Of a stretch of 64,000 nt of DNA, positions 7,049 through 43,857 are shown in pieces; position 1 is the stretch's first letter; each line of letters begins with the position of its first letter. Position numbers and translations under genes: made by a program. The DNA is taken from positions 1,896,087 through 1,960,086 of the forward strand of contig OZ241375.1 of assembly GCA_965200625.1 (NCBI GenBank). Reading direction: 5' to 3'. Below the pieces are notes generated by a model that saw nothing but the letters and a program-made list of their open reading frames with translations, was not told the origin of the DNA and ran no database searches. Source of the stretch: Dehalococcoidia bacterium. Its GTDB lineage: Bacteria > Chloroflexota > Dehalococcoidia > Bin125.

Positions 7049-7939
7049 CTAACGCGCAGCTTCCATGGCGGCGATCTGCTCTGACCAGGCGAGGACGTTC
7101 TCGGCCTGTTCGAGGACGGGCTTGTCAATCATCTGGCCGTCCAGCGCGACTGCGCCCAGATTCTGTTCGACGCCGTCCTGATAGGCCTCGACGACGCGGC
7201 GGGCCCAGTTGACGTCGTCTGGCGGCGGGCTGAAGACGCGGTTGGCGGGGGCGAGTTGATCGGGGTGGATGCAGAACTTGCCCTGGAAGCCGATCTCTTT
7301 CATTCGCCGGAGCTCGTCCTCGTAGCCCTCGGGGTCGCGGATGTCCGTCCAAGGGGTGTCCAGCGGGGCGATGCCGGCGGCGTGGGCGGCGTTGACGGAG
7401 GCGCGGCGGGCCAGCTCCAACTCTGCGCCGCCCTTGGTGCGGCGGACGCCGATGCTGACGGCGTAATCCTCGCCGCCGACGCAGATGCCGACCAGCCGCG
7501 CCGAGGCGGCGCAGATCTCGTAGGCGTTTGCGACCGCGTGCGCGTTTTCGATCCAGGCGGCGATCTTCACCTGGCCGTCGGCGAGGCCGCGGGCGCGTTC
7601 GATCAGGGTGAGGTAGTCGTCAATGCGCTGGACGTCGCGGGCGGACTCGATCTTGGAGACGCTGACGCCGTCCAGCCAGGGCTGGACGATGGCGTGGAGT
7701 TCCTGCTCGATCAGGCCGGTGTCGTAGCCGTTGGTGCGGACGAAGAGCTGGCGGCCGCGCTTGGGGAAATCGGGGAGGACTCGGCAGAGCAGGTCGCGGG
7801 CGGTGGGCTTGTCGTCCCAGGCGACGGAGTCTTCGAGGTCGAAGCAGAGCACGTCGGCTTGAGCGTCGCGGGCTTTCTCGATGAAGCGTTCCCGAATGCC
7901 GGGCACGGACAACATTGATCGCATCACGGTGGCGGCCAC
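7049..7939 (-). CDS. HpcH/HpaI aldolase / citrate-lyase beta (CitE)-like acyl-CoA lyase
   Basis: 296 aa; CitE/malyl-CoA lyase family pattern (SMLSVPG..., LCFDLEDSV, KIESARDV). A start at MRSM (7924) is also possible. Confidence 0.75.
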   Translation of the reverse strand: MAATVMRSMLSVPGIRERFIEKARDAQADVLCFDLEDSVAWDDKPTARDLLCRVLPDFPKRGRQLFVRTNGYDTGLIEQELHAIVQPWLDGVSVSKIESARDVQRIDDYLTLIERARGLADGQVKIAAWIENAHAVANAYEICAASARLVGICVGGEDYAVSIGVRRTKGGAELELARRASVNAAHAAGIAPLDTPWTDIRDPEGYEDELRRMKEIGFQGKFCIHPDQLAPANRVFSPPPDDVNWARRVVEAYQDGVEQNLGAVALDGQMIDKPVLEQAENVLAWSEQIAAMEAAR

Positions 7940-8640
7940 TACGAATCCTCCTGCTCGTCATCGACTGCTGCTGCGGGTCTCGTGAAGATTGTTCGCAAGC
8001 GTTCCAGATCGTCCGGGTTGTCGGTGGCGCAGCCGCGGAAGCCGAGCGCGGCGGCGGACTCGGCGTCGTCCGGGGAGCCGGAGACGACCGGGAGGTCGAA
8101 GGCGGCGGCGGTGAGGATGACCTGGGCGCGGGCGGCGGTGACGGTGTCGCTCTCGGGCGGCACGCCCAGGGACTCGGCCAGGGCGGGCTGATCGAAGGCG
8201 ATCCAGGTCATGCGCTCGGCTGAATCGCGCATGGTCTGGAGCGCGGCGGACATGAGGTTGAGCGCACGCGGGTCGTGGAAGCCGACCGCCATCGCGGTCA
8301 GTCCGGGACGAATGTTGGCGCGCAGCTCCAACTCCTCCAGGACGCCTTCGAGGTAGCGCAGCTGATCGACGCTGGCGATGGTCTGGACGCCGACGCCGTA
8401 GACGCCGGGCTGGAGGGTGTGTTGGAGGTAGGGACGCGCCAGGCCGCTGTCGATGGGGGGGATGATCAGGTAGACCGGCGGTCCGAGTTGGAGGGCGGCG
8501 TCCGTGCGCTCGGCGGCGGCGGGGTATTGGCTTTGCTCAGGCGGGTGGACCAGGATCAGGGCGTCAGCGTGCTCGACGTCGGCGGCGGCGGGCAGCGGTG
8601 TATCGGGCAGCAGGACCAACAGGGCGCGGACATTATCCAT
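7939..8640 (-). CDS. Divergent CitE/HpcH-like paralog (possibly non-catalytic)
   Basis: 233 aa with weak similarity to the HpcH fold. Stop overlaps the start of the downstream lyase gene by 1 nt (TGATG). Confidence 0.4.
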   Translation of the reverse strand: MDNVRALLVLLPDTPLPAAADVEHADALILVHPPEQSQYPAAAERTDAALQLGPPVYLIIPPIDSGLARPYLQHTLQPGVYGVGVQTIASVDQLRYLEGVLEELELRANIRPGLTAMAVGFHDPRALNLMSAALQTMRDSAERMTWIAFDQPALAESLGVPPESDTVTAARAQVILTAAAFDLPVVSGSPDDAESAAALGFRGCATDNPDDLERLRTIFTRPAAAVDDEQEDS

Positions 8641-8682: not shown

Positions 8683-10005
8683 TCAGTTGGGGTGGAAATC
8701 CGCGACCCGCTCGCGCAGCGCGTCTTGCTGCGAGAACGGTCCGACGACGGCGGCGGCGAGGTTGTCCTCGCGCACGATCCGTTGGGCGACGCGCTGGATC
8801 TCGGCGGCGGTCACGGACTCGTAGCCCGCGATTGTTTCCTCGACCTGCTCGATCGTCCCGTTGGCGAGCAGCATCCCGCCGGCGCGGTGGCACCAGCTGG
8901 CGGCCGCGTCCAGACCCAGCCGGAAGGAGCCGATCGCGTGTTCCCGCACGCGCTCCAGTTCTTCCGCCGCGACCGGCTTCGCCGCCATCCGCTGCAACTC
9001 CTCGAGCGCGACGTCGACCGTTTCCAGGATGTGCTCGGCGGTGACGCCCGCCATGATGGTCAGATGCCCGGCGTCGGCGAATGCGGACGGATGCGAGCCG
9101 ACCGAGTAGGCGAGTCCGCGCTTCTCGCGGATCTCGGTGAAGAGGCGCGAGCTCATACCGCCGCCGAGCACCTCGTTCATCAGCGCCAGCGCGTAGCGAT
9201 CCGGGTCGAGGCGCGAGATCGCGCGGAGCGCCAGCGCCAGATTGCACTGTTCCAGATCGCGCGGTTCGACCTGCGTGAGTTCAGATGACATCGCGTCGGC
9301 GGCGCGCAGCCGCGCGGGGATGGAGGCGAGCGCCCCCGCCGGCCAGCCGTCGGCCCAGTGCCGCTCCGCCAGCTCCAATACCTGCTCGCGGCCGACGTTG
9401 CCGGCGACCGAGAGCACGATGTTGGCGGGGCGGTACCAGGTCTCGATGTGGGCGGCGAGGTGGTCGCGGGTGATCGCGTCGACCGAGTCGAGGTCGCCGG
9501 CGATCTCCCAGCCCAGCGGCTGCTCGCCGTAGGCGGCCTGGGTGAGCAGCTGGCCGACGCGCTGGCCGGGCTGATCGTGGGCGCGGCGGATTTCGGAGCA
9601 GATCACCGTGCGCTCGCGCTCGATCTCCGCCTCCGCCAAGAGCGAGTGGCGGACGGAGTCGGCGAGCACGTCCATCGCCAGCGGGAGCCGATCGAAGGGC
9701 ACCCGATTCCAGTAGCAGGTCAGCTCGCGCGAGGTGAAGGCGTTGAGCGAGCCGCCGGCGCCCTCAATCGCGGCCGAGATCGCGGTCGGCTCCGGGCGCG
9801 AGGCCGTGCCTTTGAAGAGCATGTGCTCGAGGTAGTGGGAGAGGCCCAGCGTCGCGCGCGCCTCATCGCGCGAGCCGACGCCGACGTAGGCCGCGAGGAC
9901 GGCCGCCTGCGAGTGGGGAATGGCGGTGACCACAACGCGCAGGCCGTTGGCCAGAACATCAATTGTCGGTTCGACGGAGGCGGCGGGGGTGGAGGCGTGA
10001 GGCAT
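8683..10005 (-). CDS. M16-family (pitrilysin/insulinase-like) zinc peptidase
   Basis: HYLEHMLFKGT (HxxEH zinc motif). ATG at 10005 chosen; the ORF-track start 10062 is a TTG that would run into the upstream tandem repeats. Confidence 0.8.
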   Translation of the reverse strand: MPHASTPAASVEPTIDVLANGLRVVVTAIPHSQAAVLAAYVGVGSRDEARATLGLSHYLEHMLFKGTASRPEPTAISAAIEGAGGSLNAFTSRELTCYWNRVPFDRLPLAMDVLADSVRHSLLAEAEIERERTVICSEIRRAHDQPGQRVGQLLTQAAYGEQPLGWEIAGDLDSVDAITRDHLAAHIETWYRPANIVLSVAGNVGREQVLELAERHWADGWPAGALASIPARLRAADAMSSELTQVEPRDLEQCNLALALRAISRLDPDRYALALMNEVLGGGMSSRLFTEIREKRGLAYSVGSHPSAFADAGHLTIMAGVTAEHILETVDVALEELQRMAAKPVAAEELERVREHAIGSFRLGLDAAASWCHRAGGMLLANGTIEQVEETIAGYESVTAAEIQRVAQRIVREDNLAAAVVGPFSQQDALRERVADFHPN

Positions 10006-10053
10006 AGCAGGTTCAGCATAGACCGCGCCTCGATATGCTCGCTTCAGTATCAG

Positions 10054-10118
10054 GTCAGCCAAACGGGTCAGCGGGACAAGTCAGCGGGACAAGTCAGCGG
10101 GACAAGGCCGCGGGACGG
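10054..10118. repeat. 13-bp tandem repeat (GTCAGCGGGACAA x3 perfect, plus 2 degenerate flanking copies) in a divergent promoter region
   Basis: Seen directly between the M16 peptidase gene (-) and the hypothetical gene (+). Confidence 0.85.
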
Positions 10119-10126
10119 GGCAGTCG

Positions 10127-10972
10127 ATGCAGGCCTTCGTCTCGGCGCGCTATCAGTATCACTGGGCTCCGCTGACCGGCTGCCTCACGGCGCAGTTGGC
10201 GCAGATCGAGGCGGAGTTCCCGAGCCACATCATTGGCGCGGTCACCGGGATCGCCTATCAGCCGCCGCAGGACGCGGAGCTGCCCGCTCCGCTGGCGGAC
10301 GGTCTGCGGGCGCTGGGCGTTGCGGCGAAGGTGAGCGTGGTGTCACTGCCCAACCGTTGGCAGCGGTTTCGTCAGCGCCGGCGCATCCGTCGGGAGCTGC
10401 TCGCCGACCGCGCCGTGACCGCTTACGGCGTCGGCGTCTCCGCGTTTGGTCCGGCCTGGGGGCTGATCGTCGGCTTCGACGACGAGCGCCGCGCCTGGCG
10501 CCGCGACGGGCCGATGACGGAGCAGGTGTCGCCCTGGTTGGCGGAGGTGGAGTTCGACGCGGCTGCAGTCCAGGCAGTCCAGATCGTGATCACGGCGCGG
10601 CGCGTCGGCGCGGCCGACGACGGGCAGGTCGAGCGCGTCGCGCAGGCGGCGTTTGCGGGAGCGCTTGCGCGGGCGCGGAGCGATCTGCGCGGACGGATTG
10701 AGCAATTGGAGAGCGCCGTCGAGCTCGAGCCGCAGCGCCATGCGCACGAGATGCAGACGCTCGCCGCCAACTGGGGCGAGGCAGCGGCCTTCTGGCGCGC
10801 GGTGCCGCATTTCGAGTACACGCCCGCTGCGCAGCAGATCGCGGTGACGCTCTCCCGCTGCGCCACGCTGTTTCCCTATCCGATGGGCGGGCAGCCCAAT
10901 CATCCCGGCGTCCGCACGACCGCTGTCCACATTCTCCAGCGGGCTGCCGACGCTCTGCCGCCTGCCCATTGA
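10127..10972 (+). CDS. Hypothetical protein (possible papain-like/BtrH-N-like fold, very tentative)
   Basis: 281 aa, no strong motif. N-terminal TGCLTAQLAQI and later GLIVGFDD resemble the Cys and xVVVGYDD blocks of C39/BtrH-like peptidases, but the expected His is not evident. Confidence 0.45.
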   Translation: MQAFVSARYQYHWAPLTGCLTAQLAQIEAEFPSHIIGAVTGIAYQPPQDAELPAPLADGLRALGVAAKVSVVSLPNRWQRFRQRRRIRRELLADRAVTAYGVGVSAFGPAWGLIVGFDDERRAWRRDGPMTEQVSPWLAEVEFDAAAVQAVQIVITARRVGAADDGQVERVAQAAFAGALARARSDLRGRIEQLESAVELEPQRHAHEMQTLAANWGEAAAFWRAVPHFEYTPAAQQIAVTLSRCATLFPYPMGGQPNHPGVRTTAVHILQRAADALPPAH

Positions 10973-11006
10973 TACACTCCCTACGAACCAAGCCCCGGAG
11001 ACCTGC

Positions 11007-11300
11007 ATGGCTATCAGCGTCAAACTGTTCATGACCCTTGTCCCGCTCTCGAAGTCGAAGCAGGGCACCCTTGCCGTCGACTGGTTCGACGGCATCACCG
11101 CTCAGCACATCCTGGAGGCGGAGGAATTTTCGCCCCAGGATCAGGAGGCGATCGCGGTGGTGATCAACTCCGTCCAGGCGCAGCCCGACGATCCGCTCAA
11201 GGATGGCGACCAGGTTGATCTGCTGGTCAACCTGCAGGGTGGACACGATGGCGAGGGCGGACAGGGGACAGCGGGGATGGATTGCGGGGCTCGTGAGTAG
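11007..11300 (+). CDS. ThiS/MoaD-like ubiquitin-fold sulfur-carrier-type protein with C-terminal extension past Gly-Gly
   Basis: ...AVVINSVQAQPDDPLKDGDQVDLLVNLQGG matches the MoaD/ThiS C-terminal signature, followed by 18 extra residues (HDGEGGQGTAGMDCGARE). 3' end overlaps the pyrG start. Confidence 0.6.
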   Translation: MAISVKLFMTLVPLSKSKQGTLAVDWFDGITAQHILEAEEFSPQDQEAIAVVINSVQAQPDDPLKDGDQVDLLVNLQGGHDGEGGQGTAGMDCGARE

Positions 11301-12975
11301 CGACGATTCGACTCCGAAGTACATCTTCATCACCGGCGGGGTGATCTCCTCCGTCGGCAAGGGCATCACCACCGCCGCGCTGGGCCGACTGCTCCAGTCG
11401 CGCGGCCTTTCCGTCACCGTCCAGAAGCTGGATCCTTATCTCAATGTCGATCCGGGCACGATGTCGCCCTACCAGCACGGCGAGGTCTACGTCACCGACG
11501 ACGGCGCGGAGACTGACCTTGACCTCGGGCATTATGAGCGCTTCCTCGATCAGAACCTGACCGCCGCCTCGTCCGTGACGATGGGGCAGATTTCGGCGGA
11601 GGTGATCGAGCGGGAGCGGCGCGGCGACTATCTCGGCGGCACGATCCAGACCGTTCCCCACGTCACCGATTTGATCAAGGAGCGCGTGCGCGGGCTGGCG
11701 CGGCGGGAAGGCGTGGACGTGCTGATTGTTGAGGTCGGCGGGACGGTGGGCGACATTGAGGGGCAGGCGTTTCTGGAGGCGATCCGCCAGATGCGCTACG
11801 AGGAGCCGCGCGACGGGACGCTGGCGATCCACGTCACGCCGCTCTTTCATCTCAAGGCGACCGACGAGTTGAAGACCAAGCCGACGCAGCACTCGGTGCG
11901 CACCCTGCGCAGCATGGGCATCCAGCCGGACATCATCATCTCGCGCACGGATATTCCCGCCGACTACTCGATCACCAAGAAGCTGGCGCTCTTCTGCGAC
12001 GTCCCGGCGGACGCAGTGATGACGCTGGAGACGGCGGCCTCGATCTACCACGTGCCGGCGATGCTGGAGCAGGCGGGGTTGACGGATCTGACCCTTGAGC
12101 GGCTCGGGCTGAGCCCCAAACCGTGCTCGCCGGAGCGCTCCTTTGATCACTGGCTCGACTGGACTGATCGTCTGGCCCGGACTGACCGCGTCTGCCGGGT
12201 GGCGATTGTGGGCAAGTATGTGGAGCTGCGCGATGCGTATCTGTCGGTCAAGGAGGCGCTGATCCACGCTGCGGCGCAGCGTGGGGCCAGCGTGGATCTC
12301 ACCTGGATTCAGTCGGATCAGCTTGATCAGGCGGATCAGCCGGAGATCGCCGCGGCGTTGGCCGACGTGGACGGGGTGATCGTGCCGGGCGGCTTTGGCG
12401 AGCGGGGGATTGAGGGTGAGGTCGGCGTCGCCTGCTTTGCGCTGGAGCAGGGCATTCCCTATCTCGGTCTCTGTCGGGGGATGCAGAACATGGTCATCGC
12501 CTTTGCACGCCAGCGGCTCGATCTGCCCCGCGCGAACACGACCGAGGCGGACGCGGAGACGGACGCTCCGGTGATCGCGCTGCTCGACGAGCAGCGCGAG
12601 CTGACCCAGCTGGGCGGGACCATGCGGTTGGGCAAGTACGCCTGCCAGCTGCGGCCCGAATCCCGCGCCCGGGCGCTCTATCAGGCGGACTCTACTTCCG
12701 AGCGGCACCGTCACCGCTGGGAGTTCAATCCCCGCTACCGCGACCGCTTCGAGCGCGCGGGTTTGCTCGCCAGCGGCGCCTCGCGCGATGGGGCGCTGGT
12801 GGAGATTGCGGAAGTCTGCGATCACCCCTTCATGCTTGGCTCCCAATTTCACCCCGAGCTCAAGTCCCGCCCGGAGCGTTCCCACCCGCTCTTCCTCGGC
12901 TTTATTGACGCTGCCCTGGCCGAGTCCGAGACGGCGCTGCGCCATCCCGTGGGCGCGACCGACCCAGCCAGCTGA
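11293..12975 (+). CDS. pyrG: CTP synthase
   Basis: TPKYIFITGGVISSVGKG and a glutamine amidotransferase domain (GLCRGMQ). GTG 11293 chosen as start; an ATG at about 11248 immediately after the ThiS-like GG codons is an alternative. Confidence 0.9.
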   Translation: MSSDDSTPKYIFITGGVISSVGKGITTAALGRLLQSRGLSVTVQKLDPYLNVDPGTMSPYQHGEVYVTDDGAETDLDLGHYERFLDQNLTAASSVTMGQISAEVIERERRGDYLGGTIQTVPHVTDLIKERVRGLARREGVDVLIVEVGGTVGDIEGQAFLEAIRQMRYEEPRDGTLAIHVTPLFHLKATDELKTKPTQHSVRTLRSMGIQPDIIISRTDIPADYSITKKLALFCDVPADAVMTLETAASIYHVPAMLEQAGLTDLTLERLGLSPKPCSPERSFDHWLDWTDRLARTDRVCRVAIVGKYVELRDAYLSVKEALIHAAAQRGASVDLTWIQSDQLDQADQPEIAAALADVDGVIVPGGFGERGIEGEVGVACFALEQGIPYLGLCRGMQNMVIAFARQRLDLPRANTTEADAETDAPVIALLDEQRELTQLGGTMRLGKYACQLRPESRARALYQADSTSERHRHRWEFNPRYRDRFERAGLLASGASRDGALVEIAEVCDHPFMLGSQFHPELKSRPERSHPLFLGFIDAALAESETALRHPVGATDPAS

Positions 12976-12996
12976 TCCGCCGCCGACGATGAGCGC

Positions 12997-13479
12997 ATGA
13001 CCATGAGCGAGACCGAACTGTTCCGCTTCCTGACGACGCTGGCGGCGCTGGTCTACGGCGGCGGGGTTGCTGCGCTGACCCTTGCGCTGACCCGCGCCTG
13101 GCAAACTGATGACGCGGTTGAGCGCGACGTGCTCTTCCGCTCCGCCGATCGGGCGCACACGCGCTTGCTGCTGCCCGGGATTATCGCCACCGGCGTGTTG
13201 GGCGCGCTCTGGGGGATTCGCGCGGAGGGAGTTGATCCGATCAACACGGGCTGGCTGCTGGCGGTTGAGGTTCTCTACCTGGTCTCGCTCTTTGTGCTCG
13301 TGCCGGGGATGTTTGCCGGCGTGCGGCGGGTGCGGCTGCTCTCGCTGCAGGCGCGGAAGACCGGGCAGCTCTCGGCGGAACTGACCGACGCGCTCAATGA
13401 CCGCGGCCCGCTCGTCTTTGCGATCTTTATGTCCGTGCTTCTGCCCGTCCAGGCGGCGCTCGTTACAGTGCAGCCGTAG
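12997..13479 (+). CDS. Small integral membrane protein (DUF2269-like)
   Basis: 160 aa with about four predicted TM helices; no catalytic motif. Confidence 0.5.
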   Translation: MTMSETELFRFLTTLAALVYGGGVAALTLALTRAWQTDDAVERDVLFRSADRAHTRLLLPGIIATGVLGALWGIRAEGVDPINTGWLLAVEVLYLVSLFVLVPGMFAGVRRVRLLSLQARKTGQLSAELTDALNDRGPLVFAIFMSVLLPVQAALVTVQP

Positions 13480-13505
13480 CCCTCTGCCGAAAGACCCGAC
13501 CACTC

Positions 13506-14195
13506 ATGAAGATCTTCCTCGACACCGCCCGCCTCGACGAAATCCAGCAGGCCGTTGACTGGGGCGTCTGCGACGGCGTCACCACGAATCCGTCCCTGCA
13601 CGCGCGCGCGGTCGCGCATGAGGGCGCGGACGCGATTTCCTACTACGAACGCATCCGCCGCATCGCCGCGATCGTAGACGGCCCGATCTCGGCGGAGTGC
13701 GTCTCGCGGACGACCGATGAGTTGATCGGGGAGGCGCGTGAGCTGGCCGGCTGGCATCCGCGCGTTGTCGTCAAGATTCCCATTGACGGGCCCGGCCTGG
13801 CCGCGATCAAGGCGCTCTCGCAGGAGGGAATCCAGATCAACACCACCCTGATCTTCTCGCTCAACCAGGCGCTGCTCGCGGCGCGGGCGGGAGCTGCCTA
13901 CGTGTCGCCGTTTGTGGGCCGCCTGGACGACATCGGCGAGGACGGCATCCAGCTGGTCGCCGACACTGTCGACCTGCTCGACCGCTACATTCTTCCCGCG
14001 CAGGTGATTGCGGCCTCGCTGCGCCACACCGATCACACCGCCGCCGCGGCCCGTGTCGGGGCGCACATCGCCACGATCCCCTTCCCCGTGCTCGAACAGA
14101 TGCAGCGCCATCCGCTCACCGACAAGGGCATCCAGGCCTTCCTCGATGACTGGCATCAGGCGGAAACGCAGCTGCGGGCGCAGCCGGTGAGCTAG
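13506..14195 (+). CDS. tal: Transaldolase (short Fsa/TalC type)
   Basis: MKIFLDTARLDEIQQAVDWGVCDGVTTNPSL is the canonical N-terminus of short transaldolases / fructose-6-phosphate aldolase. Confidence 0.85.
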   Translation: MKIFLDTARLDEIQQAVDWGVCDGVTTNPSLHARAVAHEGADAISYYERIRRIAAIVDGPISAECVSRTTDELIGEARELAGWHPRVVVKIPIDGPGLAAIKALSQEGIQINTTLIFSLNQALLAARAGAAYVSPFVGRLDDIGEDGIQLVADTVDLLDRYILPAQVIAASLRHTDHTAAAARVGAHIATIPFPVLEQMQRHPLTDKGIQAFLDDWHQAETQLRAQPVS

Positions 14196-24954: not shown

Positions 24955-25647
24955 TCAATCCTCCAGCTCGGCCTCCGCCTCCGCCAACAGGAGGATCAGC
25001 CGCTGGGCCAGCGCAGGGACGTGCGCTTGGATGATCTCCCAGAGCTGCTCCGGCTCGATCTGGTAGTAGGCGTGGACAATCCGATGGCGCAGGCCGATCG
25101 TCTCGCGCCACGCAATCTCCGGATGCGCGTCCCGCACCCGGCGGGGGATCTTCCCCGCCTGCTCGCCGAGCTGCAGCAGGTGGAAACTCACCAGGTCGAA
25201 CCGATCCTCGTCGGCCAAGAATTCCTCGTAGTTGATCCCGGTCGTGCTGCCGATGACCCGCGCGCAGCGCTGCTGCATCTCCCGCACGTAGACGTCCCAG
25301 CGCTTGGGGCGTGATTCGTCGGGCATATGCGGCCTCGGATTCAGGGGATCGACTGCTTCGGCCTCGACCCAGGGCAGATACTCGCGGCGCATGTGCCGCT
25401 GCTCGACCAGATCAACCTTGCGCCCGAACAGCGCTTCGAGGTAAACCTCCGCCTCGGAGCGGCCCCAGGACCATTCGCAGTCGAGGGAGCCTACGAGGAT
25501 ATCGACGTCGCTCTCGGCGGTCGCCTCATCGCGCGCGGTGGAGCCGAACAAGCGCAGGTCGCGCACGCCAAAACGCTCGCGCAGCACCGGCAGATGCGCG
25601 CGCAGCAGCGCCAACGCCTCGTCCCTGCTGATCGCCTGATTGCTCAT
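24955..25647 (-). CDS. Fused minimal nucleotidyltransferase (MntA-like) - HEPN/HepT-like RNase domain protein, copy 1
   Basis: N-terminal LFGSTARDEATAESDVDILV (GSxxRGxxxxxSDxDxxV MNT motif); C-terminal GLRHRIVHAYYQ (HepT/DUF86 Rx4HxY). Convergent with dnaK (17 bp gap). Confidence 0.8.
   Translation of the reverse strand: MSNQAISRDEALALLRAHLPVLRERFGVRDLRLFGSTARDEATAESDVDILVGSLDCEWSWGRSEAEVYLEALFGRKVDLVEQRHMRREYLPWVEAEAVDPLNPRPHMPDESRPKRWDVYVREMQQRCARVIGSTTGINYEEFLADEDRFDLVSFHLLQLGEQAGKIPRRVRDAHPEIAWRETIGLRHRIVHAYYQIEPEQLWEIIQAHVPALAQRLILLLAEAEAELED
25288..25625. repeat. Direct repeat copy A (about 338 bp, roughly 97% identical to 26063-26400) covering the MNT-domain half of the fused gene
   Basis: Nucleotide alignment by eye of the 5' halves of the two paralogs. 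Confidence 0.8.
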
Positions 25648-25725
25648 CACCGCGCCTGCGCGTCCAGATTACCGCCCCGCGCTGCCTGCCTGTCCGGCGG
25701 CAACCGCGCCGCGCCCGCGCTGTCC

Positions 25726-26424
25726 TCAATCCTCCAGCTCGGCCTCCGCCTCCGCCTCCGCCAACAGCGGCTCCAGCTGTTCCGCCAACGCGGGGACGTG
25801 GTGCTGGATGATCTCCCAGAGCTTCGCCGGCTCGATCTGGTAGTAGGCGTGGGCGATCCGGTTGCGTAGGCCGATCGTCTCGCGCCACGCGATCTCAGGA
25901 TGCGCCTCGCGCACCGACGGCGGCGCCTTGCCTGCCAACTCGCCGATCTGGAGCAGATTGAAACTGACCGCCCGCAGCGTCCGCTCGTCGGCCAGATAGG
26001 CGTCGTAGTCCATCCCCGCCGTGAAGGCGGTGACCTCGCGGCAGTACTTGAGCATGTCGCGGATGTAGACGTCCCAGCGCTTGGGGCGTGATTCGTTGGG
26101 CATGTGGGGCCTCGGATTCAGGGGATCGACCGCCTCGGCCTCGACCCAGGGCAGATACTCGCGGCGCATGTGCCGCTGCTCGACCAGATCAACCTTGCGG
26201 CCGAACAGCGCTTCGAGGTAAACCTCCGCCTCGGAGCGGCCCCAGGACCATTCGCAGTCGAGGGAGCCGACGAGGATATCGACGTCGCTCTCGGCGGTCG
26301 CCTCATCGCGCGCCGTGGAGCCGAACAAGCGCAGGTCGCGCACGCCGAAGCGCTCGCGGAGCACCGGCAGATGCGCGCGCAGCAGCGCCAACGCCTCGTC
26401 CCGCCCCGTCACCGGCCTCGTCAT
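25726..26424 (-). CDS. Fused MNT - HEPN/HepT-like protein, copy 2 (tandem paralog)
   Basis: Same MNT motif; HEPN half diverged but carries the canonical GLRNRIAHAYYQ motif. Confidence 0.8.
   Translation of the reverse strand: MTRPVTGRDEALALLRAHLPVLRERFGVRDLRLFGSTARDEATAESDVDILVGSLDCEWSWGRSEAEVYLEALFGRKVDLVEQRHMRREYLPWVEAEAVDPLNPRPHMPNESRPKRWDVYIRDMLKYCREVTAFTAGMDYDAYLADERTLRAVSFNLLQIGELAGKAPPSVREAHPEIAWRETIGLRNRIAHAYYQIEPAKLWEIIQHHVPALAEQLEPLLAEAEAEAELED
26063..26400. repeat. Direct repeat copy B (MNT-domain half of paralog 2)
   Basis: See copy A. Confidence 0.8.
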
Positions 26425-32295: not shown

Positions 32296-33246
<951 letters not shown>

Positions 33247-33287
33247 GCGCGCGGCGCGTCGGCCCGTGCTGTGAAACGGGCTAGATC

Positions 33288-34718
33288 GTGCGCGGCCTCG
33301 GCAGAGTCCTGAGCAGCCCCTTCCGCCGCGCCTGGCGGGCGACCTTCGGCACGCGCCGCTCGCTCAGCATCGTCGTCACCCTGACGATCGTCGCCTTCGC
33401 CGTCGGCTTCGCCTCCAACTACTGGCTCCCCCAGCGGCTCGGCTACACGCTGCTCTTCGGCATCGCCCTGGCCGCGTTCTGGACCTGGTCCTCGGGCCAG
33501 GGCGTGCGCGTGCGGATGTCGCGCTCGCGCGACCGCGTCCAGGCGGGCGAGTCGATCATCGAGCGCTTTGAAGTGATCAACGACTCCGCCTTCCCCAAGC
33601 TCTGGCTGGAGGTCGAAGAGACCTCCGACCTGCCCGGCCACACCGCCCAGTTCGTCACCTCGCTGGGCCGCGCCAGCCACCGCAACTGGCGCGTCCAGAC
33701 CGCCTGCCAACGGCGCGGGCTGTACAACCTGGGCCCGATCACCGTGCGCAGCTCCGATCCGTTCGACATCTTCCACCGCGAAATGCGCTTCGGGCATCGG
33801 CGCGGCCTGGTTGTCTATCCGCGCGCGCTCGAGCTGCCGCGCTACTCCGCGCCGCCCGCCAACCTGCCAGGTGAAGGCCGCTTCCGCCGCCGCACCCATT
33901 ACGTCACGCCCAACGCCTCCGGCATCCGCGACTACGAGGCCGGCGACTCCGTCAACCGCATCCACTGGAAGAGCAGCCTGCGCACGGGCTCGCTCAAGGT
34001 CAAGACCTTCGAGCTTGACCCCGCCTCGCATCTCTGGGTGATCCTCGACCTCTCCAGTCAGGATCACATCGGCAGCGGCGACGACGCCTCGATCGAGACC
34101 GCCGTGACCGTCGCCGCCTCAGTCGTGCGGCTGTTCATCAATCAGAACCGCTCCGTCGGGCTGATGATGTTCGGCGAGCGGCTTGACGTGATCGAGCCCG
34201 ACCGCGGCTCCCAGCACTTCGGGCGGATGCTCGAAGCGCTGGCCGTCGCGCAGCCCGTCGGGACCGTGCCGGTCGCCTCGATCCTCTACCAGCAGTCGCG
34301 CCGCTGGGGTCGGCATACGACCGTGATCGTGATCACCGCCTCGACCGATCCGCGCTGGCAGGGCGCGATCCGCACGCTCACCCAACGCGGCGTCAAGGCG
34401 GCGGTGGCGATGCTTGACCTCGAATCGTGGGGCGGGCGCGGCGGGGCGGCGGCGACCGCCGTCGAGCTGCGCGCGCTGGGCGTACAGGTCAACCTGATCC
34501 GCAAGGGTGACCACATCCCCGCCGTGATGGTCGGCCAGATTCCCGGCGGCGGCCGCGCCGCCGGCGCGAGCGCCAACGGAGCCGGCGGCTCCGCGCCAGC
34601 CGCCCCGACTGGACCAGCCACCGCGCAAGCCAACCTGGAACTCGAAGATGCGCTCGCGGAAGCCGACTGGCGGGCGGCTGAGAGCAGCGGCGCGGCGGAA
34701 GAAACGAGCGTCCGATGA
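33288..34718 (+). CDS. DUF58 (vWA-like) protein, MoxR partner
   Basis: DSVNRIHWKSSLRTGSLKVKTFE DUF58 signature; N-terminal TM segments. Confidence 0.8.
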   Translation: MRGLGRVLSSPFRRAWRATFGTRRSLSIVVTLTIVAFAVGFASNYWLPQRLGYTLLFGIALAAFWTWSSGQGVRVRMSRSRDRVQAGESIIERFEVINDSAFPKLWLEVEETSDLPGHTAQFVTSLGRASHRNWRVQTACQRRGLYNLGPITVRSSDPFDIFHREMRFGHRRGLVVYPRALELPRYSAPPANLPGEGRFRRRTHYVTPNASGIRDYEAGDSVNRIHWKSSLRTGSLKVKTFELDPASHLWVILDLSSQDHIGSGDDASIETAVTVAASVVRLFINQNRSVGLMMFGERLDVIEPDRGSQHFGRMLEALAVAQPVGTVPVASILYQQSRRWGRHTTVIVITASTDPRWQGAIRTLTQRGVKAAVAMLDLESWGGRGGAAATAVELRALGVQVNLIRKGDHIPAVMVGQIPGGGRAAGASANGAGGSAPAAPTGPATAQANLELEDALAEADWRAAESSGAAEETSVR

Positions 34719-37576
34719 GCGCTCAACCGCCCGCCCACGACGGCGCTACCGAACCGACGACGCTCGCCGCCCAGGCCGAGCGCCGCTTCTTCGCCCGCCG
34801 CGCGAATGCGGAGACGCTCGTCGTCTCCGGACAGCAGGAGGCGCTCTCGCGCAGCCGCCGCGCGCTGGAGACGACGATCACCTTCGGCATCCTGCTGCTG
34901 GTCGCGCTCTCCGCGGCGAACAGCATCTACATCGCCGGCTGGGTCGAGCAGATGCCCGATCTGCGCATCACCGCCGCGGCCGCGGTGTTGCTCGCGCTCG
35001 GCCTGGGCCGCGTCGCCTGGCTGCGCTGGCCGCTGGCGATGCTGCTCGGGATCGTCGTCGGCGGGCTGATCATCATGGCGCAGGTCACCCAGCTCGAGAC
35101 GCTCGGCGGCCAGCCGCTCTTCTGGGATCGCTTCACCGACTTCGGCTTCCGCTTCCAGGACTGGTTCCGGCAAGCGTTCAGCGCCGGCCTGACGACCGAC
35201 AACCTGCCCTTCGTCTTCTTCACCGACGTGTTCGTCTTCATCGCCTCGTTCCTGGGCGCCTACGCGGTCGCCCGCTGGCGCAACGCCTGGGTGGCGATGA
35301 TCCTGCTCGGCGCGCTGCTGGCCGTCAACGTCTCCTACCTCTCCGACCGCCAGTGGAACCTCTCCTACGGTTTTTTCCTGACCGGCTCGATGCTGCTCCT
35401 GATGCGCGCCTCGCTGCTGCGCCGCATGGATCGCTGGCGCGTGCAGGGCTCCGCCTATCCCGACTGGATCTCGCTCTCCTTCCTCGGCGCGACGATGCTC
35501 GCCATCATCCTCCTGCTCAGCCTCTCCCGCGCACTCCCGCGCCCCGATGAGTCGCAGGAGCTGGAAGACGCCTGGGCCGCGATCGCCGAGCCGTTCGAGG
35601 GGCTCAACGACGACTTCCGCCGCCTGTTTAGCGGGATCGACTCGCGCCGCGGTGTGCCCGTCCACTCGTTCGACGACTTCCTCGTCCTGCAGGGCGACGT
35701 TGATCCGGGCGACGCGATCATCATGCGCGCCGCCGCGACCGAATCCGGCCTGCTGCGCGGCGCGGCCTACGACGAGTACACCGGCCGCGGCTGGCGGCAG
35801 TCGCCCTCCGTCGCGCGGCGGGTGGAGGAGCTGGAACCGATCAGCGGAACCGCCGCGACCGATGAGACCTCCGTCGGCAACGACGGCGGAATCCTGACCA
35901 GCGAGTACCTCGACCGCCGCCCCGTCGCCGCGCAGATCTCGGTCGAGAAGTCGCCCGCCGTGCTGTTCTCCTTCGGCGCGCCGCTGATCGCGAACAAGGA
36001 CACGCGCGTCGACACGCTCGCGTCGGTCGATTTCAGCGTCGACTTCGATGCGCCCGAGCGCTTCACCGGTACCGATCTGGAGCTCGCGCTCTCGGCGATC
36101 AGCGACCGCATCGCCGCCGGCCGCGCCGATCCGGAGGATGACGTCGAGCTGCCCTCGCCGGACGAGGTCGCCTCCTACGTGCCCGCGCAGTACACGCTGG
36201 TTGACGTCGAGATCGATTCCCGCAGCGGCGCGCCGGTCGGGCTGCAGCTGCGCTCGATCCCTGAGGAGACCGACGTGCTCTCGCTGCGTCCCGCGCAACG
36301 CCGCGTGCGGGCCGGCTACACCTACCAGATCACCGGCACCGTCTCTGGCGCCAACGAGGAGGCGCTGGCCGCCGCGGGTCACGACTATTCGCTCTGGGTC
36401 ACCGAGACCTTCCTCCAACTGCCCGATTACGACGATGAGCAGCGCGGCAACCTCGAGCGGATGGTGAGCACGATCGCGGGCAGCTTCGGGCTCGCGCCCG
36501 ACCCGGCGCGGGAGGACGGTGGCTACAACCCCTACGCCATCGCCTCGGCGGTGGAAATCTATCTGCGCTCCGCCCCCGCCGTGGACGAGAACGGGCGCAT
36601 CGTCCGCGACGACGACGGCGAGCCGATCCCGCTCTACCCGCTGACCACCGACATCGAGCTGCCGCCGGCCAAGGCGGACGCGGTCTACTGGTTCCTCTTC
36701 GAGAACCTTGAGGACGGCCGGCCGATCGGCGGCTACTACGACTACCACGCCTCCGCGATGGCGGTGCTGCTGCGCGTCGCAGGCGTGCCGGCGCGGATCG
36801 CGACCGGCTTCGTGCTCAGCGGCAACAACTTCGACGACCGCACCCAGAACTACATCGTGCGCGGTCACGACGCCTACGCCTGGGTCGAGGTCTATTTCCC
36901 CGACTACGGCTGGGTCGACTTCGACCCGACGCCCAGCTCCTCAGCGGACGAGGCGCTCGCCTCGATCGCCGGCGGCGGAGTCGGCGTCGGCCCGCGCATC
37001 GCCGCCCAACGCCTGGCCACGCCGCGCTTCGATCTGCGCCCCGGCCTCGGCGGTCAGAGCCTGGCCGATGTCGTGCTGGACGACATCCTCCAGTACCTGG
37101 CCGCCGGCACGCTGCCCGGCGACAACCTGGAGCTCCAGCGGGGACCGAGCCAGTGGCTCTGGCTGGGGCCGACGATCGCCGTGGCCGCCGTGGCCGGCGT
37201 GCTGCTGCTCTTCTGGCTGGTCTGGCGCTTCTCCCTGCGCGGCCTCGAGCCGACCGCGCGGCTTTGGGTCTCGACGACCCACCTCGCCCGCTGGACAGGG
37301 ATCGGAGCCGACGCTTCGACCACGCCGCAGGAACACGCGCGGCGGATCGACGAACGGCTCGGACTCGGCCAGCCGGCGCTCGACCTCGCCGATCACTACA
37401 CCGCCACCCGCTTCGGCCGCAAAACGCTCAGCGACGACGAGCGCGAGGCGGCGGCGCAGCTCTGGAAGCTGCTCAGGGTCCGCCTGCTCCGCCAGGCGCT
37501 CCGAATCCCCGCCAAACCCGAGCCTGCGGAAGAACCCGAGATCGAACCAACCGCCCCCGCCCCCGCGGGCGACTAG
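34715..37576 (+). CDS. Multi-pass membrane transglutaminase-like protein (catalytic Cys apparently replaced by Tyr)
   Basis: 953 aa. TGase-like core GGYYDYHASAMAVLLRVAGVPARIATGF...RGHDAYAWVEVYFPDYGWVDFDPT retains His and Asp, but Tyr sits at the expected Cys position. Start overlaps the DUF58 stop (ATGA). Confidence 0.7.
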   Translation: MSAQPPAHDGATEPTTLAAQAERRFFARRANAETLVVSGQQEALSRSRRALETTITFGILLLVALSAANSIYIAGWVEQMPDLRITAAAAVLLALGLGRVAWLRWPLAMLLGIVVGGLIIMAQVTQLETLGGQPLFWDRFTDFGFRFQDWFRQAFSAGLTTDNLPFVFFTDVFVFIASFLGAYAVARWRNAWVAMILLGALLAVNVSYLSDRQWNLSYGFFLTGSMLLLMRASLLRRMDRWRVQGSAYPDWISLSFLGATMLAIILLLSLSRALPRPDESQELEDAWAAIAEPFEGLNDDFRRLFSGIDSRRGVPVHSFDDFLVLQGDVDPGDAIIMRAAATESGLLRGAAYDEYTGRGWRQSPSVARRVEELEPISGTAATDETSVGNDGGILTSEYLDRRPVAAQISVEKSPAVLFSFGAPLIANKDTRVDTLASVDFSVDFDAPERFTGTDLELALSAISDRIAAGRADPEDDVELPSPDEVASYVPAQYTLVDVEIDSRSGAPVGLQLRSIPEETDVLSLRPAQRRVRAGYTYQITGTVSGANEEALAAAGHDYSLWVTETFLQLPDYDDEQRGNLERMVSTIAGSFGLAPDPAREDGGYNPYAIASAVEIYLRSAPAVDENGRIVRDDDGEPIPLYPLTTDIELPPAKADAVYWFLFENLEDGRPIGGYYDYHASAMAVLLRVAGVPARIATGFVLSGNNFDDRTQNYIVRGHDAYAWVEVYFPDYGWVDFDPTPSSSADEALASIAGGGVGVGPRIAAQRLATPRFDLRPGLGGQSLADVVLDDILQYLAAGTLPGDNLELQRGPSQWLWLGPTIAVAAVAGVLLLFWLVWRFSLRGLEPTARLWVSTTHLARWTGIGADASTTPQEHARRIDERLGLGQPALDLADHYTATRFGRKTLSDDEREAAAQLWKLLRVRLLRQALRIPAKPEPAEEPEIEPTAPAPAGD

Positions 37577-37595
37577 CCAGCCCCCTTGAGAGAGC

Positions 37596-37770
37596 ACTAC
37601 TCGCCGTCGTTCCTGCGAAAGCAGGAACCCACGCGGAGGTCGCGCTCGTCTCCCTGAGTTGAGCGATCACGGTTCAGACCAGGTGCGGGGACCGCGGCAT
37701 TTTTGGCACTTGGGCGACGGTTTCGGCCATGGTCTGGGTTCCTGCTTTCGCGGGAACGACGGAGCCTGTG
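37596..37770. repeat. MITE-like repeat elements (two opposed terminal-hairpin modules) between convergent operons
   Basis: CCGTCGTTCCTGCGAAAGCAGGAACCC at 37606-37632 and GGTTCCTGCTTTCGCGGGAACGACGG at 37738-37763. Confidence 0.75.
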
Positions 37771-37797
37771 TGCGGGGTGGTGCTCTGACCTTCGTTG

Positions 37798-39759
37798 TTA
37801 CCAGTCCAGGGCACGGCCTGCCAGGTCGAGGCGGCCGGCGGCGAGGCGCTCGCCGGGGACTGCCCGTAAGGCGTCGAGGACGGCTAGGGCCTGCTCGAGG
37901 CTGGCGTTCTCGAGCGGTAGATCGTCGAGCGCGGCTTGCAGTTCCTGCATTGCCGCCTGGCGGCGCTCGAGGAGTGACGCTTCCTCGGCGAAGGTCGGCG
38001 CGGTGGGGATGGCTCCCTGACCCGGCGTCTCTCCCTGAGCCTCGCCCAGTGGGGCCTGCGCGGCCTGTGCGTCTGCGCCGGGCGACTCCGCCTGGCCCGA
38101 TGCGGGACCGCCCGCATCGTCCAGATTGGCGTCGCCTGCACCGGCATTGTCCGCCTGGCCGGACTGCCCCGGCTGACCCGGCTGACCCGGTTGACCGGGT
38201 TGACCGGATTGCGCCGACTGGCCCGCCTGGGCGTCCGCCTGCGGCTCGGCGTCCTCGGCGAGCGCGTCCAGGAGTGCGTTAATGAGTTCCAGATTCTGTT
38301 TGGCGTCGCGCAGCGCCGGGGTTTCGCGCAGCGCCTCGATGTACGCCTGCCGCGCGCCGAGCAGGTCGCCGTTTGCCCAGCGGTGATTGCCCGTGTGGAA
38401 CCAGGCGCGGGCGCGGAGCGCGGCGTCGTCGGCGCGCAGCGCGGAGAGCGTCTCGGTCTCCGCGCGTTCATATTCGCCCAGCTGATGCAGCGCGCGGCCG
38501 GCGTTGAGCGCCAGGCGCGGATCGACGCCGCCGCCCGCGGCGGCGTCGATCCGCTGCGCCTCGCGCCAGGCGTCCAGCGCCTCGGTGTACGTGCCCGCTT
38601 CGTAGTGGGCGATGCCGTCGCGGTTGAGCTGGGCCGCGCTCGGGCCGCCGCAACCGTTGACGACCAGCAGCGAGGTCGCCAACGCGCCGACTGCGGTCGG
38701 ACCGAAGCGGCCGTCTCTCGACAGCCCGAAGACTCGCGCCGCCACTGATCCGAGGAGCAGGATCGCCGCCGCGCCGACGAACCACTGGAACTGCTCGGCC
38801 AGCGCCGTGTCCTCGACCACGACCGCGCGCACCTGATCGAGCGCCGCGAGGTCGGCGTTCAGGTCCGCCAACGCGCCGGGCTGGTCGAGCTCGAGGTAGC
38901 GGCCGCCGCCCGCAGCGGCGATTTGCTCCAGCTGCGCGGCGTCGAGGCTGGTGATGATCGGGCGGTTGGTGCGGACATCGAGCTTTGGCTCTCCGTCCCT
39001 GCCCTGCGGAATGGTCGCGCCGTCGGCGCTGCCGACGCCGATCGTGAACACCTGCACGCCCTGCGCGCGCGCCGCCGCGGCGGCGGCGGGGGCGTCGCCG
39101 CGATGCGCCTCGCCGTCGCTGACCACGGCGATGACGCCGTTGACCCGGCCGGCGCTGTCTCCCCCGCCATCCACGTTGTCATCCACCTCGGCAGCGCGGA
39201 CGATGGTGGCGGCGGCGAGATCGATGGCGTGGGCGAGGTTTGAGCCGGGTTCGACCAGCGCCTCGCCGGGCTGGAGCGCTTCCAGTACCTGCAAGGCGGC
39301 TTCGTGATCGCGGGTCAGGGGGAAGCGGAGGAAGGCGCTGCCGGCGAAGATGACCAGCCCCACGCGGTCGCCGCGCCGACCGTCGATCAGGCGGCGAAGC
39401 TCCGCCTGCGCCGCCGTGAAGCGGCTCACCGTCGCCTCGCCGCCGACGTCCACCGCCGCCATGCTCTGGGAGACGTCGAGGGCGATCACGAGGGAGAAAT
39501 CGGACAGGCCCAGCGTCTGCTCGCCCTCATGCCACTGGGGACGCGCGGCGGCGACGGCGAGCAGCGCCAGCGCCAGCAGCAGCAGGACGCGGGAGGCGGT
39601 TACGCCGCGTCGAACGCCGGCCACCGGCGCGCCGACGGCGGCGCGGTGCAGCCGCCGCGCCCGCCAGAGCCACCACCAACCGATCCCGGCGGCAGGCAGC
39701 AGCGCCAAGAGCGCTAACAGCGCGGGTTCACCCCAGGCCATCAGGGCGCCCGCCGCCAC
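37798..39759 (-). CDS. BatB-like vWA-domain + TPR membrane protein
   Basis: N-terminal TM, vWA MIDAS block SLVIALDVSQSM, C-terminal TPR repeats and a Q/P/G-rich linker. Confidence 0.75.
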   Translation of the reverse strand: MAAGALMAWGEPALLALLALLPAAGIGWWWLWRARRLHRAAVGAPVAGVRRGVTASRVLLLLALALLAVAAARPQWHEGEQTLGLSDFSLVIALDVSQSMAAVDVGGEATVSRFTAAQAELRRLIDGRRGDRVGLVIFAGSAFLRFPLTRDHEAALQVLEALQPGEALVEPGSNLAHAIDLAAATIVRAAEVDDNVDGGGDSAGRVNGVIAVVSDGEAHRGDAPAAAAAARAQGVQVFTIGVGSADGATIPQGRDGEPKLDVRTNRPIITSLDAAQLEQIAAAGGGRYLELDQPGALADLNADLAALDQVRAVVVEDTALAEQFQWFVGAAAILLLGSVAARVFGLSRDGRFGPTAVGALATSLLVVNGCGGPSAAQLNRDGIAHYEAGTYTEALDAWREAQRIDAAAGGGVDPRLALNAGRALHQLGEYERAETETLSALRADDAALRARAWFHTGNHRWANGDLLGARQAYIEALRETPALRDAKQNLELINALLDALAEDAEPQADAQAGQSAQSGQPGQPGQPGQPGQSGQADNAGAGDANLDDAGGPASGQAESPGADAQAAQAPLGEAQGETPGQGAIPTAPTFAEEASLLERRQAAMQELQAALDDLPLENASLEQALAVLDALRAVPGERLAAGRLDLAGRALDW

Positions 39760-40706
39760 CAGCTGGCGCGGAGCGCGAGCTCCAGCACGATTATGATCCC
39801 CGCGCTGAGCAGCAGCCAGGGCGCGAGCTCCTCTGTGGCGAGGAAGATCTCCTCACCGACGCGCTCGCGCTCCAGCGCCGAGATCGATTCGTAGGCCTCG
39901 GCCAACTCCCGCGCGTCGGCGGCGCGGAAGTAGACGCCGCCGGTTTCGTCGGCCATGTAGATCAGCGTGATCTCGTTGAAGCCCACGCCGACCTGGCGGA
40001 TCTGGGACGGCAGGCCGATCGTGTAGAGGCGCACGCCGGTCGCGCGGGCGACGGCGGCGGCCTGGTTGGGCGTGATGTCGGGCACGTTGTTCTCGCCGTC
40101 GGTCAGGACGACGACGATCCGCGAGGCGGCGTCGGAGCCGCGCAGCAGGTCGATCGCCTCCATCGTCGCCACGCCGAGCGCCGTGCCGTCCGGGAGCAGA
40201 CCGCTGCGCACGGAGACCTCCACCATCTCGTCGATCGCGTCGAGGTCGAGCGTGAGCGGGCTGAGCACCAACGCGCGGCGCTGGAACATGACCAGGCCGA
40301 TCCGGTCGCTGCCGCTGGCCTCGCGCTCGGCGACGAAGTCGCGGGCCACGCGCCGCGCCGCCTGCATCCGCGTTTCGTCGCCGCTCAGCCGCGCCGTCGC
40401 CATCGAGGAGGAGGCGTCGATCACGAGCACGATGTCGATGCCCTCGGCCGGCTGGACCGCCTCGACGGTCGTCGCCTGGGGCCGCGCGGCGGCGATGATG
40501 ATCAGGATCAGCGCGAGCGCGCGCAGGCCGCCGAGCAACGGCAGGACGCGCAGCCGGCGGCCCGGGCGGTCGCGCAGCGGCGGCGCGCCGTGCAGTTGGG
40601 GCAGCAGATAGCGCGGGCGCGTCAACCGCGCCTCGCGGCGCAGCAGCCAGAGATAGGGGAGCAGCAGCGCGAACAGCGCGAACAGGGCCGGATCGTCAAA
40701 TCTCAC
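39741..40706 (-). CDS. BatA-like vWA-domain membrane protein
   Basis: DIVLVIDASSSM MIDAS motif and two N-terminal TM helices. GTG start at 40706 forms a GTGA overlap with the upstream stop; the ORF-track start 41126 is an Arg-rich spurious extension. Confidence 0.75.
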   Translation of the reverse strand: MRFDDPALFALFALLLPYLWLLRREARLTRPRYLLPQLHGAPPLRDRPGRRLRVLPLLGGLRALALILIIIAAARPQATTVEAVQPAEGIDIVLVIDASSSMATARLSGDETRMQAARRVARDFVAEREASGSDRIGLVMFQRRALVLSPLTLDLDAIDEMVEVSVRSGLLPDGTALGVATMEAIDLLRGSDAASRIVVVLTDGENNVPDITPNQAAAVARATGVRLYTIGLPSQIRQVGVGFNEITLIYMADETGGVYFRAADARELAEAYESISALERERVGEEIFLATEELAPWLLLSAGIIIVLELALRASWWRRAP

Positions 40707-42552: not shown

Positions 42553-42560
42553 GGCCAGAC

Positions 42561-43793: not shown

Positions 43794-43857
43794 TCACGCA
43801 CGCCCCGTTGTCCCGGTCACGACAGGGGCAGGGGCGAGAAAGTGAACGGTGATCATC

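Follow-up and report, generated by a model that had tools for sequence, protein, structure and literature searches.

Proteins of the ThiS family, and precursors that carry a tail beyond a Gly-Gly motif (GG), are already known, the latter among the QbsE/QbsD and CysO/Mec+ systems and in eukaryotic ubiquitin, SUMO and Atg8. A further group relevant here is the CtaG class, which is defined by a two-domain architecture and a Cys11-His128-Asp144 triad acting on carrier-protein thioesters (PMC12865890). We describe a locus from a Dehalococcoidia bacterium, lying in a 64,000-nucleotide stretch of contig OZ241375.1 (hereafter the window, meaning the whole stretch analysed; 69% G+C), in which three plus-strand open reading frames (ORFs) encode a protein of 281 amino acids (aa), a small protein of 97 aa and CTP synthase (pyrG). 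The small protein resembles ThiS and MoaD and is extended beyond its GG, and its neighbour has the predicted fold of CtaG. The puzzling tail turns out to have an ordinary explanation, and the gene pair and the unannotated family of the larger protein are modestly interesting in their own right.

The small ORF (11007-11300) encodes a genuine ThiS/MoaD/SAMP-type beta-grasp protein in which an invariant GG precedes a real extension, as an earlier note on this DNA had claimed from its reading of the ORF. The protein matches the Pfam ThiS model (PF02597) with 24.1 bits against a curated cut-off of 22.5, the match ending exactly at GG, and a profile of the small-protein family finds Pyrococcus SAMP2 (5lda_B, E = 1.4e-5) as well as PF1061 (E ~1e-5), again ending at the terminal GG; the beta-grasp assignment proposed for checking in the earlier note therefore holds. 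The AlphaFold2 (AF2) model is a beta-grasp with a predicted local distance difference test score (pLDDT) of 70-84 in the core and below 50 in the tail, which is predicted to be disordered. The frame runs through DLLVNLQGG to Gly78-Gly79 (LKDGDQVDLLVNLQGG; 11238-11243) and then through HDGEGGQGTAGMDCGARE to TAG, such that GG, the actual C-terminus of the gene product in ThiS and MoaD, is followed here by 18 further codons; a direct stop at GG is confined to a minority of relatives. All 48 homologues keep GG, as do lineages at ~50% identity (QGG, AGG or SGG in the deeper ones), the core is unchanged through QGG in close relatives, and the N-terminus MAI/VxVKLFMTL is kept in all homologues. At ~87% identity the core evolves as slowly as PyrG, compared to ~65% for the large protein, as would fit a protein whose interaction surfaces are under constraint. 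Three independent assemblies (two Logan, one ENA) carry the same 97-aa ORF, and the extension is thus not a sequencing error.

Comparison of about 55 Dehalococcoidia lineages, in which the tail ranges from 0 to 52 aa, identifies it as a real but labile element that, as the aligned DNA shows, consists of the pyrG leader and ribosome-binding region in translated form. Tail lengths are 0, 2, 4, 8, 9, 13, 16, 18, 20 or 52 aa among 46 species-level genomes, in all of which pyrG is the next gene, and 0, 1, 7, 9, 13 or 16 aa in deeper lineages. The residues after GG are without sequence conservation among relatives. Conservation of the DNA immediately before the pyrG start (GGAGCGACATCGAGCCAGTGAGCAGC) is seen with and without translation, and the stretch GGAGCGACATCGAGCCA-GTG-AGCAGCGA is conserved in tail-bearing genomes and untranslated in two relatives (L028 and L042) that carry TGA right after GG. 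The small ORF usually stops either at the TGA in GTGA (4-nucleotide overlap with pyrG) or at the TAG in GTGAGTAG (8-nucleotide overlap, the window's case, 11293-11300), and the pyrG start therefore supplies stops in each of the two other frames. Most tails open with a TCN (Ser) codon, one substitution away from TGA. In the window's lineage the stop after GG has been lost, and the ORF runs through the former spacer to the TAG inside GTGAGTAG. A precursor-like tail can in this way arise for free, by a single change between Ser and stop (TCA/TGA), with the stops in the next gene's start ending the read-through, and a processing system consequently cannot be deduced from an extension beyond GG alone. 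It had been proposed earlier that relatives stopping right after GG would reveal the extension as an artefact; some relatives do stop there, which means that the tail is labile and not that it is artefactual, and the proposed test was mis-specified.

In the long tails, the spacer that separates the small gene from pyrG holds tandem duplications. The 52-aa tail of locus L041 (10899-11294) carries three copies of a 12-aa unit (AIGLxxDLxxGL), and the 20-aa tails of L036 and L044 (11195-11494) carry SPGG three times.

The identity of pyrG is given by NCBIfam PRK05380 (742 bits), whose profile begins at K39 of the mechanically delimited ORF, and the alignment of at least 46 loci starts at the pyrG GTG at 11293. 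Gene calls in public assemblies start pyrG instead at the ATG at 11248, giving a protein of 575 aa and a 53-nucleotide overlap with the small ORF. We disfavour that start, as the ATG lies in a lineage-specific insertion while the GTG and the following VSSD(E/D) codons are conserved. The earlier note was correct that an ATG in the pyrG frame follows the GG codons and that the tail overlaps pyrG, but the conserved start is the GTG.

The 281-aa protein has no match in Pfam, NCBIfam or PADLOC, and a PDB profile search with its family found no relative; weak matches to IpaH NEL domains in that search (E ~0.2) are taken as chance, since they disappeared with a broader profile and the fold search disagrees with them. 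The AF2 model built from a 47-sequence alignment has a pLDDT of 95.7 and Foldseek agrees on a CtaG/BtrH-like fold, bearing out the faint resemblance to papain-like BtrH-N/C39 folds that had been noticed from the sequence. As in the CtaG/BtrH-type transacylases, an N-terminal papain/C39-like domain (~residues 1-160) is predicted to be joined to a C-terminal helical bundle (~165-276). BtrH_N (PF14399) does not match the window protein and matches 1 of 38 family members (E = 0.022). Signature motifs of the family are YxY[HN]WxPLxG[CSA]L, FGPxWGLIVGxDD and LSRxATLFPYPMGG, the second of which is the strand expected to bear the catalytic His. The modelled fold belongs to a family that does not keep the Cys-His-Asp triad. 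Neither the 47 close homologues nor the 38 distant ones share an invariant Cys or His, and the triad positions vary: C, S or A occurs at position 19, W, F or Y at position 111, the canonical place of the His, and D, E or N at position 127.

An exhaustive profile search added 103 more distant representatives, with the consensus NW[TS]S[LI]xGA..., PEFG[LI]IxGYDD and LSRxxTLFPYPxGG, Ala at position 19 and again no His; a further protein search by profile gave mainly the same clade. Several of the distant members form the C-terminal domain of extracytoplasmic function (ECF) sigma factors with Sigma70_r2 and r4_2 (P0197, P0210, P0217, P0225, P0244), two follow a winged-helix domain (P0266 and P0267; L054 8001-9377), and one (P0221) has a GNAT domain C-terminal to the family domain. 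One case of such a distant regulator fusion lies in an archaeal contig. Fusions to sigma, winged-helix and GNAT domains are a pattern seen typically in binding or sensor domains and not in peptidases, and they fit such a role for the large protein. Literature searches did not find a triad-less papain/CtaG-fold domain described as an ECF C-terminal extension.

Scanning GTDB species representatives for the 281-aa protein returned 46 genomes, all of them Dehalococcoidia metagenome-assembled genomes and many from sponges, and the order 281-aa gene, small gene, pyrG is present in all 46, so that the conservation in relatives asked about in the earlier note is confirmed. The M16 gene (divergent), the 281-aa gene, the small gene and pyrG form a vertically inherited arrangement specific to Dehalococcoidia. 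In deeper lineages, where the small protein is at ~50% identity and the large protein at 29-35%, the pair is still adjacent and on the same strand, with order and a short spacer (20-80 nucleotides, carrying a Shine-Dalgarno site) kept down to ~30% identity of the large protein. The arrangement is not universal: the related Chloroflexota lineages L062 (3549-4700), L076 (4001-4973) and L080 (3001-4001) keep M16, the large protein, pyrG, DUF2269, TAL and Rho and have no ThiS-like gene, and the small gene must therefore have been gained or lost at least once.

In one deep clade (L077-L081) a sigma-70-like promoter, cgTTGACAc followed after 18 nucleotides by TAnnnT, lies before pyrG and after the small (or large) gene, and is itself followed, upstream of pyrG, by a conserved leader AGAACAGACGGTCG that might be a regulatory element. 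With this promoter in place the large and small genes make up a unit of two, and the overlap with pyrG is accordingly derived in the window's clade. Ancestrally the unit comprised the 281-aa gene and the small gene, and a functional link of the pair to pyrG, which the overlap alone might have suggested, is weakened.

Enzymes that might activate or process GG were sought by a six-frame motif scan of the 64-kb window and by Pfam searches with ~45 window genes. Neither a ThiF/MoeB gene, which would encode an E1-type activating enzyme, nor a JAMM gene was found anywhere in the window, extending the earlier observation that none is adjacent; the JAMM metal-binding motif HxH...S..D is absent from the six-frame translation and no window gene matches the Pfam JAB model. 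Rhodanese, MoaE, ThiG and TtuA genes are likewise missing from the window, and none of these genes, ThiF/MoeB and JAMM included, lies in the flanks of the locus in relatives.

The explanation we favour, with confidence that is evenly balanced, is that the 281-aa and small proteins are a functional pair in which a relic papain cleft docks the GG arm without classical catalysis, the tail being neutral and either tolerated or clipped elsewhere. The two genes would form a two-gene functional unit, and the flexible C-terminal arm of the small protein, which bears GG, would dock in the cleft and chamber of the large one, by analogy with the way in which CtaG receives the arm of a carrier protein or the Cys-less C39-like domain of HlyB binds its substrate uncut. 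The tail would then be a selectively neutral, disordered appendage that is tolerated or removed by an unlinked peptidase, and it may have been favoured because the overlap couples translation of pyrG to that of the small gene. Should GG be activated chemically, to a thiocarboxylate or a conjugate, the E1 would have to be encoded elsewhere in the genome.

Several points weigh against this explanation. The region comprising M16, pyrG, DUF2269, TAL and Rho is syntenic across the clade and adjacency is therefore weak evidence for a link between the two proteins. The large protein can do without the small one, as is evident from the three loci that retain it beside pyrG and have no small gene. A GG that never varies, with a tail that does, classically marks a precursor in need of processing, which argues for a peptidase somewhere rather than for mere tolerance of the tail. 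Finally, triad positions were mapped to CtaG by motifs and secondary structure and not by superposition, although the lack of a conserved Cys or His holds irrespective of how the positions are mapped.

A possible but rather less probable alternative is that the two genes are functionally unrelated neighbours, the small protein being an ordinary sulfur carrier or SAMP-like modifier whose position reflects inherited synteny only. It would be activated by a distal E1 of ThiF/MoeB/UbaA type and trimmed by a distal JAMM or other peptidase, just as SAMP2, the closest solved relative, works with a distal E1 and a JAMM peptidase. The same unspecific synteny of the M16-to-Rho block in all relatives, the loci in which the large gene adjoins pyrG with no small gene between them, and the typical precursor pattern of invariant GG and variable tail all speak for it. 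However, inherited synteny does not readily account for the persistence of gene order, strand and spacer where the large proteins have diverged to ~30% identity, nor for the deep-clade promoter that sets the pair apart from pyrG. The usual sulfur acceptors (MoaE, ThiG, CysM, TtuA) are also not nearby, and in a limited search the small protein was found in no other context here.

We consider it unlikely that the 281-aa protein is instead a re-armed, non-canonical enzyme acting on the GG end through Cys/Ser19 or other residues, whether by trimming the tail in the manner of a C39 double-glycine peptidase or deubiquitinase, or by transferring the small protein as a CtaG-type transacylase. The idea draws on the region of the ancestral active site being the best-conserved part of the protein, and on an association with residue 19: Cys/Ser19, with the motif R.AW.R[DE]GP[LM]T, is enriched in lineages that have the small gene, the distant Ala19 relatives L055, L054 and L062 have no small gene, L004 and L005 combine Ala19 with no tail, and tails longer than 8 aa all co-occur with Cys19. 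Taken together, further loci no longer follow this pattern: they comprise L077 (Cys19, 16-aa tail), L078 (Ser19, no tail), L076 (Ala19, no small gene), L079, where Ala19 goes with a tail of 7 aa, and L080, which has Ser19 but lacks the small gene. L079 and L080 led us to reject Cys19 as a tail-trimming nucleophile, and residue 19 therefore behaves as a small structural residue. A buried residue of that kind would be expected to interchange among Cys, Ser and Ala, and a nucleophile would not. A conserved His or other general base is absent, the Cys at the N-terminus of helix 1 and the His that cleavage after GG by a C39 peptidase or deubiquitinase would involve are not conserved, and among distant relatives there are sensor-like proteins fused to sigma factors. 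These comparisons of sequence lend no support to a peptidase role that is canonical or relies on Cys/Ser19, nor to the speculation in the earlier note that the upstream protein could be the processing enzyme, given also that the protein is kept in lineages without any small gene to process.

We attach little credence to a broader proposal that the CtaG-fold and ThiS-like proteins constitute an undescribed ubiquitin-like module, in which the triad-less, papain-derived protein recognises the GG arm and might act on it non-canonically, GG might be exposed by removal of the tail or the small protein transferred without a linked E1, and expression of the module would in one clade be tied translationally to that of CTP synthase. 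Weakest of all, to the point of being negligible, is the earlier suggestion that an assembly indel created the extension or that a programmed frameshift fuses or separates the small protein and PyrG: the overlap of the small ORF with the pyrG frame and the gene calls starting inside the tail might hint at it, but the sequence is the same in all three assemblies, the extensions of most relatives differ in length and end in either non-pyrG frame or before pyrG, and neither a slippery site conserved among relatives nor an Rfam element was found.

These results define an unannotated family without a Pfam model that has the predicted CtaG/BtrH papain-like fold and no catalytic triad, and that occurs in two contexts, as a stand-alone protein beside a ThiS-like protein in marine and sponge-associated Dehalococcoidia and as a domain fused C-terminally to ECF sigma factors and winged-helix regulators. 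The pairing of such a family with a ThiS-type protein is absent from a survey of prokaryotic ubiquitin-like systems (PMC1779556) and from our literature searches. If the two proteins interact, they would be a bacterial counterpart of eukaryotic pairings between pseudo-deubiquitinases and ubiquitin-like proteins, and would provide a new context for the ThiS family outside the thiamin, molybdenum cofactor and tRNA thiolation pathways.

The layout of the locus is given in Table 1.

Table 1. Features of the locus in window coordinates
Feature	Position	Strand	Remarks
M16 metallopeptidase gene	8683..10005	-	Pfam Peptidase_M16 and M16_C; HxxEH motif present
13-nucleotide direct repeat array (GGGACAAGTCAGC)	10065..10116		Between the M16 and 281-aa genes; read from sequence
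281-aa protein gene	10127..10972	+	Predicted two-domain CtaG/BtrH-like fold, triad-less
Shine-Dalgarno GGAG	10997..11000	+	6 nucleotides before the ATG of the small ORF; read from sequence
ThiS/MoaD/SAMP2-type beta-grasp core, residues 1-79	11007..11243	+	Ends at invariant Gly-Gly
Small ORF tail, 18 non-conserved codons (HDGEGGQGTAGMDCGARE) and TAG	11244..11300	+	Translated pyrG leader and ribosome-binding region
pyrG (CTP synthase)	11293..12975	+	Conserved GTG start; overlaps the small ORF stop by 8 nucleotides (GTGAGTAG)

The stop of the 281-aa gene and the small ORF are separated by a 34-nucleotide gap. The divergent M16 gene, whose product is 440 aa as called in independent assemblies, shares its upstream intergenic region with the 281-aa gene. 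It adjoins in almost all related loci, those without the small gene included, and we regard it as context and not as a demonstrated component; the equal adjacency in lineages without the small gene leaves the M16 peptidase unsupported as a specific protease for the tail. The repeat array in the shared intergenic region, a likely promoter region, has one copy more in the window and the ENA contig than in both Logan assemblies of the same organism, which is a strain-level copy-number polymorphism. A search of 9800-13600 found no terminator, Rfam element or promoter of sigma-70 consensus, and the lack of a terminator or Rfam element is in keeping with a pairing of the two genes. An anti-phage ubiquitin-like system (Bil, Bub or type II CBASS) was considered and rejected, as neither the 281-aa nor the small protein matches a PADLOC defence-system model and the neighbours are housekeeping genes.

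Elsewhere in the window, a gene for a 233-aa protein with no Pfam or PADLOC match (7939-8640, minus strand) lies between the M16 gene and an HpcH/HpaI aldolase-like gene (7049-7939, minus strand) that overlaps it by one base, an arrangement kept in several relatives. Two tandem paralogous genes (24955-26424, minus strand; 231 and 232 aa) each encode a fusion of an MNT-like nucleotidyltransferase and a HepT-like RNase, which are toxin-antitoxin-type domains, and are inserted between dnaK and dnaJ of an hrcA-grpE-dnaK-dnaJ cluster. The region 32296-44000 holds two separate Bat-like sets of MoxR AAA+, DUF58 and VWA genes, one of which includes a 953-aa transglutaminase-like protein with DUF4129.

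Set beside the known systems, the large protein departs from the CtaG/BtrH/AsbE/CcbD ligases and AziU3/U2 (PDB 9qvj, 7yn1, 7wuw; PMC12865890) in that the Cys-His-Asp triad is not conserved, the partner is a beta-grasp protein and not a phosphopantetheinylated peptidyl or acyl carrier protein, and there is no biosynthetic gene cluster. Compared to C39 peptidase domains and the degenerate C39-like domain of HlyB (PDB 6mpz, 5xe8, 3zua), it is cytoplasmic and stand-alone, has an additional helical domain and lacks an accompanying ABC transporter, and the GG of its presumed ligand lies near the C-terminus and not in an N-terminal leader. The small protein shares with the ThiS/MoaD/SAMP family (PF02597) a beta-grasp of ~80 aa, with a match that spans to the family C-terminus and GG at the position of the activated end, and by sequence Pyrococcus furiosus SAMP2 (PDB 5lda_B, 1rws) is the solved structure closest to it; it differs from the family in the 18 aa past GG, in having no E1, JAMM or sulfur-acceptor enzyme genes nearby, and in a beta1-beta2 loop (TLVPLSKSK) that is unusually conserved here. 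With the tailed precursors (QbsE, CysO/Mec+, ubiquitin/SUMO/Atg8) it has in common a conserved GG followed by a short, non-conserved extension. Those precursors, however, are linked to a JAMM or papain-type peptidase with intact catalytic residues, whereas the protease-shaped neighbour here is without them, and the tail at this locus is the translated leader of the next gene, varying from 0 to 52 aa among close relatives.
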